64,000 nt of DNA, from positions 544,001 through 608,000 of the forward strand of contig CAWJEN010000006.1 in the NCBI GenBank assembly GCA_963841915.1, read 5' to 3'. The position numbers and the translations under genes were made by a program. The notes below the pieces were generated by a model. The model saw nothing but the letters and a program-made list of their open reading frames with translations, had not been told where the DNA came from and made no database searches. Source of the DNA: an uncultured Planctomycetota bacterium. GTDB taxonomy: Bacteria; Planctomycetota; Phycisphaerae; Tepidisphaerales; Tepidisphaeraceae. This document shows positions 56,643-64,000 of this stretch, piece by piece. Position 1 is the first letter of the stretch, and each line of letters starts with the position of its first letter.

Positions 56643-57488
56643 TTACAGCAGTTCGGCGAGGCCTGCGTAGAAGTCGAGCCGGTCGAGGTCGACTGTGTCG
56701 GGGCCGTACCAGTTTCCAAAGACACGGATGACGTCTTCGCGGCCACCGTTGAAGCGGAGCGAGCGGTTGGCCGTCGCCAGATCCAGGTGTCGGTCGGCGA
56801 CGCAAAGCTCGCCCAGATCGATAAGCCCCGTGCGGTCGCCTAAGTCGGCCAACACGTTGGGCAGACAGTAATCGGCATGACTGACAACGTAGTCGGCGTC
56901 GGTCGGCACACGTTTCTGCAGCTTCGCAAGCAGCTTGGCCGCCGCCTTGGGATCGCCACCGACACGAAGGTTGCTGGAGTTGACAGACCCGTTGGCGACA
57001 CGCTTTTCGGCGGTTGCAATGAGATCATCAGGTGATTGCTTCGCCAGACCGTCGGTCGGGCGGCCGTGCAGCCAGCGGAGCGCGTTGCCCATGAGGCGAC
57101 CAACACGGATCGGCGTCTCGGCCATCGCCTCGTGCAACGGTCGCCCGGGAACAGCCGTGGTCAGCAGATACGACCACGTTCCGGCCACCAAGCCGGCTTT
57201 GCCAGCCTCTACACGGCGTTGTTCGAAGGCAAGGATCGACGGCACGTTCGGGTCAATGTCCGGATCCGTCCGGCTCACGAGCCAGCCGATGCGGTCACGT
57301 TCGTCGCACAACGGACAGTCTCTGCCCTCGGCCGCGAAAAACACCTTGAGAAATACGGGCCCGCTCTCGCCTTCGATGTGAAAGACGTCGGCACCCGAGC
57401 AGCCGTGGTGTCTGCGGCCGACGTCGGCCTTCAGGTGTGCACGGACCGACTCGGGAACATGACTCGGCAGGGGCGTCGGCAGCGGCAT
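56643..57488 (-). CDS. Aminoglycoside 3'-phosphotransferase-like kinase
   Basis: GCSGADVF, FLK, HADYCLPNVL, GLIDLG, ADRHLDLA, FYAGLAELL. Confidence 0.75.
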   Translation of the reverse strand: MPLPTPLPSHVPESVRAHLKADVGRRHHGCSGADVFHIEGESGPVFLKVFFAAEGRDCPLCDERDRIGWLVSRTDPDIDPNVPSILAFEQRRVEAGKAGLVAGTWSYLLTTAVPGRPLHEAMAETPIRVGRLMGNALRWLHGRPTDGLAKQSPDDLIATAEKRVANGSVNSSNLRVGGDPKAAAKLLAKLQKRVPTDADYVVSHADYCLPNVLADLGDRTGLIDLGELCVADRHLDLATANRSLRFNGGREDVIRVFGNWYGPDTVDLDRLDFYAGLAELL

Positions 57489-57664
57489 ACAGCGGGGCGC
57501 GTCGGTGGTGGAAAGACACGCGGCAGGTCGCCAGCACCGTAGGTCGTCCGTCGCCCGGCGACGAAACACCTGCCAACGCTGTCGGTCGAGTGTCGCACGC
57601 ACCCGCCGCCGTCGTTCGGGACGACTGGCAGACAAAACGTCGAATGGGTCCGGCAACAAGAACA

Positions 57665-57695
57665 CGCGCCCCGCTGCATCGGCAAGCGGGGCGCG
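57665..57695 (-). terminator. Terminator after the lipoprotein gene
   Basis: cgcgccccgct/agcggggcgcg followed by a T-rich tail on the minus strand. Confidence 0.6.
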
Positions 57696-58406: not shown

Positions 58407-59384
58407 ATGACCAACACCACCACGTTTAAGCGCATCACCACCGCCGCCCTGACGGCTGTGGCCACCCTCGCCGTCGGCGCCCACGCCGCCAGCGAGATCG
58501 ATCCCAACCTGCCCAAGTACGAACAAGCCAGCGGCGTCAGCGGTGACCTCCGCAGCGTCGGTAGCGACACGCTGTCCAACCTCATGACGCGGTGGGGCGA
58601 AAAGTTCTACGGCTATTACCCGCAGATCAGCTTCGAGGCCGAGTCTAAGGGCTCCAGCACCGCACCGCCCGCACTCATCGAAGGCATTGCCGAGATGGGT
58701 CCGATGAGCCGGCGGATGAAGGGCGAAGAGGAAGACAAGTTCCGCGACGAGTTCGGGTACGAGCCGACGCTTGTCCGCACCGGCATCGATGCCATCGCCG
58801 TCTTCGTCCACAAGGACAATCCGGTCGAGAGCCTTACTGTCGAAGACCTCAAGAGCATCTACAGCGTCGAAGGCGCAGAGGGCATCACGTGGGGCGACGT
58901 CGGTGTGACCGACGCCGCCTTCAAGGACCAACCGATCAGCCTCTACGGCCGCAACGCCGCCAGTGGCACCTACGGCTACTTCAAGGAAGCGGCCCTCGGC
59001 AAGATCGACTTCAAGCCGACCGTTAAAGAGCAGCCCGGCAGCTCCGCCGTCGTGCAAGGCACCGGTAGCGACCGCTTCGGAGTCGGTTATTCGGGTGTCG
59101 GCTATGCGACGCCGAACGTCAAGGCCGTTCCAATCATCGGTGCCGACGGCAACGCCTACGACCCGCTCAGCGAGGACGACGTCTACAGCGACAACTACCC
59201 GCTGGCACGGTTCCTGTACATCTACGTCAACAAGGCCCCGAACCAGCCGCTCGACCGCAACGTCGGCGAGTTCATGAAACTCATCCTCTCCCAGGAGGGC
59301 CAGGAAGTCGTCGCACAGGAGAACTTCTACCCGCTCTCGGCCTTTATCGCCGAGGAAGAGCTGGCCAAGCTCGGGCTGAAGTAG
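58407..59384 (+). CDS. pstS: Phosphate ABC transporter substrate-binding protein
   Basis: SVGSDTL, GSSTAPPAL, MSR, GRNAASGTYGYF, YPLARFLYIY. Confidence 0.95.
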   Translation: MTNTTTFKRITTAALTAVATLAVGAHAASEIDPNLPKYEQASGVSGDLRSVGSDTLSNLMTRWGEKFYGYYPQISFEAESKGSSTAPPALIEGIAEMGPMSRRMKGEEEDKFRDEFGYEPTLVRTGIDAIAVFVHKDNPVESLTVEDLKSIYSVEGAEGITWGDVGVTDAAFKDQPISLYGRNAASGTYGYFKEAALGKIDFKPTVKEQPGSSAVVQGTGSDRFGVGYSGVGYATPNVKAVPIIGADGNAYDPLSEDDVYSDNYPLARFLYIYVNKAPNQPLDRNVGEFMKLILSQEGQEVVAQENFYPLSAFIAEEELAKLGLK

Positions 59385-59460: not shown

Positions 59461-62388
59461 ATGGCCGACACGAATCAAGACGAACAGACCAGCGGCTACG
59501 GCGGCGCCTTCACCGGGCGGCCGCGCAGGCGAACGACGCGCACCAGTGTCAAGGTCATCGACGCCGTCGCCAAGTACGGCATCACGGCAGGCGGGCTCGG
59601 CGTCATCGGCGCGCTCGCGCTCATCATGGTCTTTCTCGTGTCGGTTGTCGTGCCGTTGTTCGGCGACGCCGAGGTGGAAGGACAACTCGCGACGGACCTG
59701 CCGCCGAGCGATGGCAGACCCGTCGCCATGGCGCTCGATCGCAACCTCCGGGCGGCCTGGACGCTCAGCGCCGAGGGGAGCTTGCAATCGCTCATGGTCG
59801 AACCTGCCGACGACGAGGATGCACCGGGTCGCGTGACACCGGTCGCCACGCAAATGCTCGGTGGCGACGGGACGATCACCGCCAAGTCCGTAGACAAGGA
59901 CGCGATCGCCCTGGGCTTTGCCTCGGGCAAAGTGATGCTCGGCACGATCGGCTTTTCGCTGGACTACCTCAACGAGCGGCCGACGGAGCTGCGCCATCTG
60001 GAGTACGGCCAGGCGGTCAGCTACGACGGTGGCGTGGCCGACCTGACGCGGCAAGGCACGGTCCGCCTGACCAAGCTCGACGCACAGCTGGCCGACCCGA
60101 TTGATCTGCTCGAAGGTGGCCTGGTAGAGCAGCAGCCCATCACGCACATCGACTACGCGGGCGGAGCCGGCTACGGCGGCGGGACCGCGGTGCTCGCCGC
60201 ACGCCTGCAGGACGGCCGACTGTTCTGGGCGCAGTCGACGACCAAGCGGGACATGCGGACGGGTGAGCCGCGGACGACGCTGCGTCGCTATGAGCTGCCG
60301 TCGCCTCAGCGTCACGACGCCGACGCCGAAGTCGCCGGCCTCATGCTCGGCCGCGAGGGTGACTTTGTCTTCCTGCTTTTCGCCGACGGTCACCTTGTCT
60401 GGTACGACGCGACGGCCCTCAAGAAGGTGCGACGCGGGGTCGAGCCGCAAGCGATCATCGCCCAGGAGCTCGACACGCTCGACGCAAACTTGAGCGTCTC
60501 CGCCGCCGAGATGTTGGCCGGTGACTACACGCTGATTGTGGCCGACTCCGAAGGCGGCGTCAGCGGCTGGTTCCCAGCTGCGCCTGCCGAGGAGGGTGGC
60601 AGCTGGTCGGTCGAGCAGGTGCACGTCCTTGAACCTCAGCCGGCGCCGATCACGTCGATCAGCGTCAGCCAGCGCGACCGGCAGTTCCTCACCGGCGACG
60701 CCGATGGCAACGTGTGGCTGCGTCACATGACGAGCAATACGACGCAGGCGAAGCTCGATGGGGCTCGCGGCAACATCGTGGTCTCGGCAACGGCTCCGTC
60801 GATGGACGCAGCCGCAGTCATTACGGCCGACGGTCAGCTCGCGATGTGGCAGCTCGACAATCCGCACGCCGACGGCAAGCTGCGTCAGCTGTTTCTGCCG
60901 GTGCACTACGAAGGTCGGGCGGCTGAGAGCTTTGTGTACCAGTCGAGCAGTGCCGGTGACGACGCCGAGCCCAAGTACAGCCTCGTCCCGCTCGTGTGGG
61001 GCACGATGAAGGCGACCATCTACGCGATGTTGTTCGCAACGCCGATCGCGATCCTGGCGGCGATCTACTCCAGCGAGTTCATGCAGCCGGGCGTGCGGAG
61101 CGTGGTGAAACCGGGCATCGAGATGATGGCCGGCTTGCCGTCGGTCGTGCTCGGATACATCGCAGCTCAGGTGCTCGCGCCGTTCGCCGAAGACGTGCTG
61201 GGCGGCTTGCTGGTGACGTTCGCGGCAGTGCCGGTGGGCGTGATGGTATTTGGCTTCCTCTGGCAGCTCGTGCCACCGAGCGAGGTGAACAGGCAGGGCG
61301 GCTTCTGGGCGCTGGGCGGCCTCGGGCTCGTCGGCTTGGCCGGCCTTTTCTTCTTCGGCGGTACGGTGCCGATGCCAGTCGTGATTGTCTTCGTTGTACT
61401 CGCGGCGATTCTGGCCGGCTTTGTCTTCGGTATGGGCGAAGACGTTGGGCCGTTCATGCCGTTCATCGTGATGGCCGAGCTGGTGTTGGCGAGCATCCTC
61501 CTCGGTCTGGCGCTCGGCCCGGCGTTTGAGGCGATCCTCTTCGGTGGCGACCTGCGTGGCTGGCTGCGGGGCGACCCGAGCGGCTGGGTCGCACAGATGC
61601 CTTTGTGGTTCCAGGCCGTTCCCGGCTGGACGTTGCTGCTGACGCCGATCCTGACGGTAACGCTCGTGCTCGTCTTCAACCTCTACGTCCGTCCGAACAT
61701 GAAGCTGTTCGACGGCGTGAACCGGTCGCGGACGCAAATCGCCGTCATTGATCTCATTCGCTTCGTCGTCATCGGCATCGTCGGCCTGCTCGCCGCCGCC
61801 GCGGTTGGCAGCCTGTTCAGCCTCATCGGCGAGTGGACCGGTTACCGCTTCGACCTTCGAAGTGATCCGCTCGACCCGCTCACGGGCGGCGTCGTCGACT
61901 CCAACGGCGTCTTCGGCAGCTTCGACCCGCGCAACGCGCTCAACGTCGGCATGATCATGGGATTTGCTATCATCCCGATCATCTACACCGTCAGCGAAGA
62001 CGCCTTGACGGCCGTGCCCAACACGTTGCGGTCGGCGAGCCTCGGTGCCGGCGCGACGCCGTGGCAGACGGCCATTCGCGTCGTGCTGCCGGTGGCGATC
62101 AGCGGCATTTTCTCGGCCTGCATGATCGGCCTCGGCCGCGCGGTCGGTGAGACGATGATCGTCCTGATGGCTGCCGGTAATACGGCCACCATGAACCTCA
62201 ACGTCTTCGACGGCATGCGAACCCTCGCCGCCAACGTGGCGACGGAAATGCCCGAAGCGCCGCAGGGCGGCACGCACTATCGCATCCTGTTTCTCAGCGG
62301 CGTCGTGCTGTTCGCGATGACGTTCCTCGTGAACACGGCCGCGGAATTCGTTCGCATCCGCTTCAGAAAGAGGGCGTTTCAGCTGTAA
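59461..62388 (+). CDS. pstC: Phosphate ABC permease PstC, long form with a beta-propeller-like periplasmic domain
   Basis: PLVWGTMKA, KPGIEMMAGLPSVVLG, SEDAL..VP, GRAVGETMIV, RTLAAN. Confidence 0.92.
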   Translation: MADTNQDEQTSGYGGAFTGRPRRRTTRTSVKVIDAVAKYGITAGGLGVIGALALIMVFLVSVVVPLFGDAEVEGQLATDLPPSDGRPVAMALDRNLRAAWTLSAEGSLQSLMVEPADDEDAPGRVTPVATQMLGGDGTITAKSVDKDAIALGFASGKVMLGTIGFSLDYLNERPTELRHLEYGQAVSYDGGVADLTRQGTVRLTKLDAQLADPIDLLEGGLVEQQPITHIDYAGGAGYGGGTAVLAARLQDGRLFWAQSTTKRDMRTGEPRTTLRRYELPSPQRHDADAEVAGLMLGREGDFVFLLFADGHLVWYDATALKKVRRGVEPQAIIAQELDTLDANLSVSAAEMLAGDYTLIVADSEGGVSGWFPAAPAEEGGSWSVEQVHVLEPQPAPITSISVSQRDRQFLTGDADGNVWLRHMTSNTTQAKLDGARGNIVVSATAPSMDAAAVITADGQLAMWQLDNPHADGKLRQLFLPVHYEGRAAESFVYQSSSAGDDAEPKYSLVPLVWGTMKATIYAMLFATPIAILAAIYSSEFMQPGVRSVVKPGIEMMAGLPSVVLGYIAAQVLAPFAEDVLGGLLVTFAAVPVGVMVFGFLWQLVPPSEVNRQGGFWALGGLGLVGLAGLFFFGGTVPMPVVIVFVVLAAILAGFVFGMGEDVGPFMPFIVMAELVLASILLGLALGPAFEAILFGGDLRGWLRGDPSGWVAQMPLWFQAVPGWTLLLTPILTVTLVLVFNLYVRPNMKLFDGVNRSRTQIAVIDLIRFVVIGIVGLLAAAAVGSLFSLIGEWTGYRFDLRSDPLDPLTGGVVDSNGVFGSFDPRNALNVGMIMGFAIIPIIYTVSEDALTAVPNTLRSASLGAGATPWQTAIRVVLPVAISGIFSACMIGLGRAVGETMIVLMAAGNTATMNLNVFDGMRTLAANVATEMPEAPQGGTHYRILFLSGVVLFAMTFLVNTAAEFVRIRFRKRAFQL

Positions 62389-62391
62389 CCG

Positions 62392-64000
62392 ATGGCCAGG
62401 CAAGATCAGCAAACTTCGGGTGCGTCTACCGCCGCCGCTTTGGGTGGCAGGCGTCGTCGGACGTCACTCGCGGCGCGTGGTCAGCCGGCCGTCTGGCTCA
62501 CCGGCGGGGCGGCAGCATTGTCTGTGCTCATGATCGTCGGCCTGTTCGTCCTGGTCGGCGTCTACGGCTTCGGCACGTTCTGGCCGCAGCCGGTCGAACG
62601 CGTTACGTATGAGGCCAAAGGCATGAACGGCCCGGCCACCATCGTCGGCGAGGCGTTCCGTCACGACGTGCAGTTCGTCAACGAAGAACTTGCCGGCCCG
62701 AACGACAGCGACGGTCAGCCGACGCCACTCGATATCAACGACGACGGCCTCATCGAACCACAGGCCGCCATCGACCTGACGCTTTGGCGTACAGGTAATC
62801 GCGACCTTGACACCGGCACGAGCAACTTCGCCTGGGTCCCCGACTACGCGGTGAGCGGCAAGGAATTGCCGAACGACGTGCTCATCGTCGAGCGACAAGT
62901 CGACGGCCGGGCGATCGGTCGGCTCGACGCTGTTGCCATCGACGGGCGTTTGTACGAAGGCTTCGACGCGGCCTGGCCTGCGATGCAGAGCGTGCTCGGC
63001 GATGTCCGTGAGCTGGGCCGCCGCATCGAGGCTATCAAGTCGGAGCGCGGCAACATCGGCGAGGATCGGAAGGTCATTGAAGACCGCCTTGCTGCCGCGA
63101 CGGGTGAAGATCTTGACAATGACGCCGAGCGGCCGGACGTGAGTCAGGAAGATGTTGCCAGGGCTGTCGAACGATCTATCACGGAGACGGCAGAGCTGCA
63201 AGAGCGTGACCGCAATCTTGTCGCCGAGCAGACGACACTCGAGGCCGAGGTCAGCCGATACCGCTTGTTCCTTCGCGACGAATCAGGGCAGATTCTCAGC
63301 GCCAGTCGGACGGGGCGGACGTTCAATGTGTCGGCCCGAACCGTCCTGCCTGCCGACGTGGCTAGCAACGTCGTCGGCGTGAAGCTCATCGACTTCGACG
63401 GCAACACCACGCCCGCCGACCCGACGACGCCGATCATGGGGCTCGAGTCGATGGCGTCGCAGGCCCAGAAGCCGGGTGCCGTCGTCATCAAGCCCAAAGG
63501 CGACACACGGCCGGCGTTGCAGTTCGTCGATGCGTCCGGCAACGACGTCGGAGAACCGTACCTGCTTGCCCCGCGCGCGATCGTCGTTGTCACCGACGGT
63601 GAAGCAGTCGCCGCCGGAAAGCGGGTCGCGATCGAGCCGTTGGCGATGACCATCGGTCAAGTCGTCCACGCTTACCCGCCCAATCAGCTCGGCTTCTTCG
63701 GCAAGCTCGGCGTCTATGGCTCGCGGTGGTGGGAGTTTCTTACGGACAACCCGCGCGACGCCAACATGGAGGGCGGCGTCTGGCCGCACATCGTCGGCAC
63801 CGTGCTGCTGACGTTCATCATGATCGTGTTCGTCGTCCCGATCGGCGTGATCGCCGCGATCTACCTGCGTGAGTACGCGAGGCAGGGGCCGCTGGTAAGC
63901 CTCGTGCGAATCTGCGTCAACAACCTGGCAGGTGTGCCGAGCATCGTCTACGGCGTGTTTGGACTGGGCTTCTTCTGCTACGGCGTGGGCGGTTGGATCG
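62392..64000 (+). CDS. pstA: Phosphate ABC permease PstA, long form; runs off the window end (absent from the ORF track)
   Basis: Manual translation from ATG 62392: GQPAVWLTGG, FWPQP ... WEFLTDNPRDANMEGGV, AIYLREYA, NNLAGVPSIVYGVFGLGFF. Confidence 0.93.
   Translation, partial: MARQDQQTSGASTAAALGGRRRRTSLAARGQPAVWLTGGAAALSVLMIVGLFVLVGVYGFGTFWPQPVERVTYEAKGMNGPATIVGEAFRHDVQFVNEELAGPNDSDGQPTPLDINDDGLIEPQAAIDLTLWRTGNRDLDTGTSNFAWVPDYAVSGKELPNDVLIVERQVDGRAIGRLDAVAIDGRLYEGFDAAWPAMQSVLGDVRELGRRIEAIKSERGNIGEDRKVIEDRLAAATGEDLDNDAERPDVSQEDVARAVERSITETAELQERDRNLVAEQTTLEAEVSRYRLFLRDESGQILSASRTGRTFNVSARTVLPADVASNVVGVKLIDFDGNTTPADPTTPIMGLESMASQAQKPGAVVIKPKGDTRPALQFVDASGNDVGEPYLLAPRAIVVVTDGEAVAAGKRVAIEPLAMTIGQVVHAYPPNQLGFFGKLGVYGSRWWEFLTDNPRDANMEGGVWPHIVGTVLLTFIMIVFVVPIGVIAAIYLREYARQGPLVSLVRICVNNLAGVPSIVYGVFGLGFFCYGVGGWI

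Follow-up and report, generated by a model that had tools for sequence, protein, structure and literature searches.

The original survey of sandwich-barrel hybrid motifs (SBHMs) is reportedly that of Iyer, Koonin and Aravind. Lineage-specific insertions and duplications of SBHMs occur within RNA polymerase, where the motif enters loops as a compact unit, as described in PMC1586193, PMC2939025 and bioRxiv 2021.01.27.428476. These insertions presumably arose as the module was duplicated and moved repeatedly. The trigger-loop insertion SI3 (beta' i6) of RpoC consists of two such motifs, SBHMa and SBHMb, and in E. coli a Phe pocket sits where the two join (bioRxiv 2021.01.27.428476). In the phosphate permease subunit PstA of E. 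coli, the TM1-TM2 (P1) loop contacts the binding protein PstS and reaches into its cleft, according to PMC12976172. A long form of PstA (TIGR00974) is widespread in Planctomycetota and other phyla. Here we describe a long PstA from the planctomycete family Tepidisphaeraceae that carries a single RpoC-type SBHM in its TM1-TM2 loop. A full-text literature search, which had most subscription journals outside its scope and to which domain-architecture tables in supplements may still add, retrieved no description of an RpoC-derived domain in PstA.

The pst operon and the architecture of PstA

The window, i.e. the entire 64-kb stretch of DNA analysed, ends within a pst operon with the gene order pstS-pstC-pstA-pstB, and all four products score above the NCBIfam cut-offs. 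The gene for the phosphate-binding protein PstS (325 aa; 58407..59384, plus strand; PF12849, E 6e-30; TIGR02136, 229 bits) is the sole pstS that a profile search detected in this genome. It is followed on the same strand by a long pstC (59461..62388; TIGR02138, 205 bits) with a periplasmic WD40-like propeller region, for which the WD40 Pfam matches were weak and under their cut-offs, and by a long pstA (62392..64000). The pstA reading frame leaves the window, which probably explains its omission from the list of ORFs, and genome contigs place its end at window-equivalent position 64794. The resulting protein of 800 aa scores 255.5 bits against TIGR00974 (curated cut-off 193.45), and its residues Arg707 and Glu711 align with the Arg220/Glu224 region of the E. 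coli phosphate site. pstB (TIGR00972 match) lies beyond the window at window-equivalent 64806-65723. The operon is single-copy in the genome, which is 93.8% complete. On the opposite strand upstream of pstS (56643-57665), an APH(3')-like phosphotransferase gene was noted (147 bits, below the family cut-off of 205), and a similar gene also precedes pstS in a related genome (G077).

A hydropathy scan places TM1 of PstA at residues 32-66 (62485..62589, plus strand; AlphaFold helix 38-63), preceded by a basic N-terminus with six Lys/Arg within residues 1-34. The next membrane helix, TM2, with which the permease core begins, is predicted at residues 461-497 (63772..63882, plus strand), and E. coli PstA aligns from its residue 69 at this point. 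From the basic N-terminus and the positions of the two helices, residues 67-460 are probably periplasmic, which agrees with the location that the sequence-only reading had proposed for this loop. The loop contains a long helical hairpin native to long PstAs (residues 191-287; 62962..63252, plus strand; AlphaFold helices 191-237 and 252-287), whose structural matches were generic coiled coils only. A fold search with the full-length model yielded no clear match for the native periplasmic beta-domain. Past the window end, at residues ~540-630, PstA has two membrane helices that shorter PstAs lack, a feature common to Humisphaera and some other long forms.

The loop also contains an acidic DxNxDG pattern (62731..62754, plus strand), by which it would be a putative Ca-binding-like site. 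It occurs in seven of the 16 long PstAs of the family, namely those of six genomes with the same type of insert as the window and that of G029, and forms a tandem pair in several relatives. While the loop had been pointed out together with the RpoC-like stretch and is indeed present, the two are unlinked: G029 has the DxNxDG loop and no SBHM, and the Humisphaera protein (G095) has the SBHM and no DxNxDG loop. They are thus two independent features.

The insert is the second SBHM of RpoC SI3

It had originally been noted that some 110 extra residues, encoded by 63301-63639, resemble RpoC. The sequence was borne out and lies in frame within the ORF starting at 62392 on the plus strand; the borders of the insert could be narrowed. 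Empty-site relatives in the same family identify about five residues at the left end as host sequence and the final Glu-Pro as probably host, so that the insert comprises about residues 309-414 (~106 aa; 63316..63633, plus strand).

Several lines of sequence evidence connect this segment with RNA polymerase. When the PDB was searched with phmmer, all 36 distinct sequences found at E<=10 were RpoC, as the sequence-only reading had anticipated (best match 2auk, E 9.8e-6). A profile of nine inserts retrieved 51 matches at the same threshold, of which 49 were RpoC (best E 6e-9) and two were weak non-RpoC matches (E 0.17 and 0.28). Against 1.84 billion representative sequences, the profile gave 16 matches: two PstA, nine RpoC or RpoC-containing fragments and five repeat proteins. 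The latter (P0015, P0017-P0020) were dismissed as sums of weak repeats. A wider insert profile gave ten matches, six PstA and four RpoC, among the best 8000 candidates. Conversely, an RpoC SBHMb profile built without any insert sequence assigned 38.6 bits to the insert, compared with 6.7 bits for the best of 1000 shuffled controls and 4.4 bits for the reversed sequence. Among 193 PstA-like ORFs (including redundant loci) this profile matched only the PstAs of the seven insert-carrying genomes, and in the window's own genome it matched rpoC and pstA only. The corresponding SBHMa profile found rpoC alone in that genome, and SBHMb scored above SBHMa in nearly all groups. None of the Pfam and NCBIfam models, including those for biotinyl, lipoyl and membrane-fusion families, recognized the insert, and the ESM Atlas returned no usable match to it; the loop gave only PstA leads below 0.9.

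The structural comparison leads to the same assignment. Modelled with AlphaFold (pLDDT 89.4, pTM 0.82), the insert has its best SI3 match at Z 10.2 with an rmsd of 2.3 over 84 aligned residues and 33% identity; Z was 10.2 and 10.1 for 4IQZ and 2AUK, respectively, and 4.7-9.1 for cyanobacterial and plastid SI3. Foldseek gave TMq values of 0.56-0.58, and in the model of full-length PstA the SI3 match spans residues 308-418 with an rmsd of 2.0. In these models the SBHM fold extends over the whole insert domain. Since the SBHM fold is widespread (84 chains match the model at Z>=2), it could be argued that the insert is an SBHM of the lipoyl, biotinyl or membrane-fusion-protein type, or a product of convergence, and that its likeness to RpoC is incidental. 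This is very improbable: non-polymerase SBHM folds reach Z values of at most 4.4 (3.8-4.2 for lipoyl, biotinyl and HlyD-type folds) and mostly 9-19% identity, as opposed to Z 10 and 32-33% for SI3; all significant sequence matches outside PstA are RpoC or repeat-protein noise; and the insert of the Humisphaera PstA, introduced below, is 35-43% identical to its top RpoC matches in Phycisphaerae. We thus identify the insert as SBHMb, the second of the two SBHMs that make up SI3 in RpoC. It is a lone SBHM embedded in PstA sequence and not the tandem of SBHMa and SBHMb. The earlier assignment to SI3/beta' i6 holds in this more specific form, and sequence, structure, topology and empty-site relatives agree on an RNA polymerase-type SBHM within PstA. 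The database and structure searches proposed at the time, with AlphaFold, Foldseek and fold comparison, yielded the RpoC match in sequence as well as in structure.

Distribution of the insert among PstAs

A search with the region returned eight other proteins with the insert (47-65% identity) and four long PstAs without it. Among 141 genomes of the family, 17 matched at 1e-30, and 16 of these matches are long PstAs; G135 was dropped from the count, its PstA being of the short type. The insert is present in seven of the 16 (G000-G004, G077 and G095), while the other nine have kept an empty site, a pattern that answers the call for an orthologue survey. It occurs in all five genomes of the window's genus and is kept across at least three genera. 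Altogether, the collection comprises 14 distinct inserts, of which 12 belong to the window type and two to a shorter Humisphaera type. The PstA of G095 is identical to P0029, listed at NCBI under Humisphaera borealis, a cultured member of the Tepidisphaeraceae. Among the matches listed for loci fetched by PstA similarity, the insert was found in one of 80 genome loci and in none of 80 metagenome loci; a locus search with the single insert found none.

Some of the gene models deserve comment. In L007 of G001 and L008 of G002, and apparently also in P0014, the pstA frame is broken in its C-terminal half, by a run of N in G002 and likely by an indel error in G001. The database forms of the Humisphaera-type PstAs (P0029, P0030) have 478 aa and begin just before the insert; their frame is open over ~750 aa, and translation probably starts further upstream than annotated.

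An assembly chimera of rpoC and pstA would provide a trivial explanation for the domain, and the window is indeed a single assembly for which two 151-nt read records were retrieved, none of them crossing the 5' junction. However, the 14 distinct sequences come from several assembly collections, share the insertion site and include the single-contig genome G095. In addition, the own rpoC is intact and 460 kb away and gives no tblastn match to the insert, and one 151-nt record spans the 3' junction without mismatch, although this record may stem from the source sample. We consider the probability of a chimera practically negligible. Thus, neither of the two circumstances that would have spoken against the original proposal, a chimeric assembly or the lack of an RpoC match in profiles and structures, was encountered.

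The insert borders have no target-site repeat (longest shared word 5 nt), and GC3 is 0.85 in the insert and 0.80 in the rest of pstA. Five Pirellulaceae-type PstAs (L041, L047, L051, L052, L053) carry other inserts of ~50-70 residues without SBHM similarity at the same hairpin, which marks it as an insertion-tolerant site.

Donor of the domain and number of captures

The Humisphaera insert had matches in 366 of 401 Phycisphaerae, 53 of 81 Planctomycetia, 14 of 61 Verrucomicrobiota and four of 101 Pseudomonadota genomes; most of the matches listed lie in RpoC-sized frames, with RpoC motifs confirmed in the fetched loci only. The Phycisphaerae tally includes one unpublished genome (G006), on which no claim depends. 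Lineage-specific profiles scored the Humisphaera insert with 54 bits for other Phycisphaerae, 44 bits for its own family and 27 bits for proteobacteria, and in both maximum likelihood trees it is nested within Phycisphaerae SBHMb. By these sequence comparisons, the Humisphaera form clearly derives from a Phycisphaerae rpoC. The E. coli-like letters on which the sequence-only reading relied correctly indicated RpoC but do not identify the donor; it is the Humisphaera copy, the least diverged one, that points to Phycisphaerae.

The window form is more diverged than the Humisphaera form, and its donor lineage is ambiguous as judged by its sequence. In both maximum likelihood trees, the window-type inserts group with proteobacterial SBHMb, apart from the Humisphaera form, and a single insert clade was present in 0% of 200 bootstrap trees. 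This may indicate that the hairpin received an SBHMb twice and independently, the Humisphaera form coming from a Phycisphaerae rpoC and the window form, by horizontal transfer, from a proteobacterial rpoC. A profile-profile comparison of the window form likewise ranked a mostly gammaproteobacterial set first (71.8, versus 60.6 for the Humisphaera form and 45 for the family's RpoC), and this set also gave the best scores for four of the 12 window-type inserts, among them that of the window itself. Note that these RpoC reference sets consist of best matches to insert queries, not of random samples, and that the gamma set contains some alpha-type sequences. In the tree of the host PstA without the insert, the two insert groups were joined in 2% of the bootstraps, and this tree requires two changes.

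Against two captures, it has to be considered that the branch to the window-type clade is 1.0-1.6 substitutions per site long in an alignment of just 87-88 columns, as is typical of long-branch artefacts, and that AU tests did not reject one clade of all inserts (p-AU 0.062 and 0.147). A clade of inserts and Phycisphaerae was not rejected either (p-AU 0.39), nor was a single insert clade in the host tree (p-AU 0.18; 27 rows, leaving out G001 and G002 with their broken frames). Furthermore, seven of the 12 window-type inserts scored best against Planctomycetota groups (one near tie). Against the Humisphaera insert itself, seven of the 12 scored higher than any RpoC group median, one tied and four were lower. 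The insert does not have the 7-8 residue extension seen in gammaproteobacterial SBHMb in the alignment, and on the insert profile the best RpoC sequences of the family and of Pseudomonadota are about equal (34.1 and 32.6 bits). Both insert forms share a state that is rare in RpoC at four columns, and these shared columns together with the common site favour one capture. We therefore regard two captures as unlikely. A single origin may nevertheless need a loss, because G029 has the acidic loop of the window clade and no insert. It is quite improbable that two donor lineages contributed this RNA polymerase domain to one and the same hairpin and that it was kept both times; if true, this would point to a periplasmic role under selection, for instance the holding of PstS, and to SI3 modules that are mobile between genes and phyla.

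One further donor candidate was considered and rejected. A genome with a Singulisphaera title (G494) encodes a second, degenerate RpoC-like ORF (L366:6590-10594; 1334 aa; TIGR02386, 471 bits, below the cut-off), in which the catalytic aspartate motif is altered and which is located far from the normal rpoC, beside repeat-rich genes. Some unusual letters are common to its SBHMb and the Humisphaera-type insert, and the two were grouped with support of 98/92 in one tree, in which both are long branches. The Humisphaera form scored 111-114 against this paralogue, compared with medians of 118-135 for Phycisphaerae RpoC, and the window form scored 29-50, which is no match. A search for close relatives of this ORF found none. 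Other observations concern rpoC itself. In two Phycisphaerae genomes (G051:C13, G060:C2), rpoC and pstA are ~40 kb apart, which may be coincidence; the Humisphaera insert is matched best by the RpoC of these two, and their own PstA has no insert. Two RpoC-sized frames were seen in each of G133 (C102, C51) and G024 (C24, C26), perhaps reflecting duplication or bin contamination, and the RpoC P0016 (1701 aa) has more than two SBHM repeats in SI3.

Selection on the domain and possible functions

Nei-Gojobori dN/dS values for nine non-independent pairs, which are rough upper values as dS is near saturation, amounted to 0.32-0.70 for the insert, 0.33-0.87 for the native N-terminal loop, 0.45-0.82 for the hairpin and 0.08-0.28 for the membrane part. 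Among four genus members, the insert is 49-62% identical and the helical hairpin 37-45%. Six residues (A324, P374, G383, D402, G403 and A413) are invariant in 13 of 13 inserts, and each is also the commonest residue in RpoC; the main insert-specific conserved residues are G387, P394 and R411. This pattern is consistent with selection for the fold and loss of the polymerase constraints. Retention over at least three genera, taken together with the few insert-specific residues, agrees equally well with a genuine function and with a passenger status.

A role in trigger-loop folding or pausing is implausible if the domain is periplasmic, and without an SBHMa partner the junction Phe pocket cannot form. 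It is conceivable that the SBHM was co-opted as a docking module that enlarges the P1 domain to form a cage, which holds PstS or touches the propeller of PstC and thus improves phosphate capture at low concentration. This would fit the contact of the E. coli P1 loop with PstS reported in PMC12976172, the conservation of the insert, which equals that of the native loop and exceeds that of the helical hairpin, its retention throughout the window's genus and the presence of SBHM-type folds in periplasmic adaptor proteins (HlyD, CusB, EmrA). However, the nine long PstAs with an empty site work without it, insert-specific conserved residues are few, and in G000, G003 and G077 the inserts diverge far faster than the RpoC SBHMb of the same genomes (47-53% versus 78-88% identity). 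We therefore judge a docking function to be doubtful.

Instead, we lean towards the reading that the operon encodes an ordinary long PstSCAB importer, whose PstA captured an in-frame rpoC fragment for SBHMb once, in an ancestor within the Tepidisphaeraceae. By illegitimate recombination, the SBHMb-coding piece of a Phycisphaerae rpoC copy would have entered pstA in frame. The compactness of the SBHM, which makes it an insertable module, and the readiness of the hairpin to accept insertions would account for its toleration. The domain would then be exported along with the loop and, once in the periplasm, fold as an appendage to P1. Having lost its polymerase role, it would be conserved chiefly through the need to remain folded; benefits, if any, would be accessory, and phosphate transport would proceed as in other PstSCAB systems. 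The domain is dispensable in the family, where nine of the 16 long PstAs lack it.

Comparison with known systems

The case is a real, clade-restricted transfer of an RNA polymerase domain into a periplasmic transporter loop, resulting in a variant of long PstA. The direction is clear, from rpoC to an unrelated transporter, and there are both empty-site relatives and a cultured carrier, H. borealis. The SI3 module is thus movable and probably folds alone across the membrane. The case marks a permissive site in the uncharacterized periplasmic domain of long PstAs, and a domain of the transcription machinery appears to have been reused outside the cytoplasm in a small group of planctomycetes.

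With ordinary long PstAs, the protein shares the operon order, the permease core, the phosphate-site Arg and the large TM1-TM2 domain with its helical hairpin, and it differs from them by ~80-110 additional residues at one hairpin. The SBHMs of periplasmic adaptor, biotinyl and lipoyl proteins belong to the same fold class, and some of them are periplasmic, but they are far more distant (Z 3-4). The SBHMb of SI3 in 2AUK and 4IQZ closely resembles the insert in fold (Z 10.2-10.6, rmsd 2.0-2.7) and has the conserved P, DxxG, DG, G and A positions in common with it, at a sequence identity of 30-33%. In RpoC, SI3 is a tandem pair in the trigger loop, whereas PstA has a single SBHM in a periplasmic loop, and the PstA domain evolves much faster; the window form additionally has short helices. 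As in the SBHM insertions of RNA polymerase, a host protein has received the copy of an SBHM in one of its loops; those insertions stay within the polymerase, whereas the PstA copy moved to an unrelated membrane protein.
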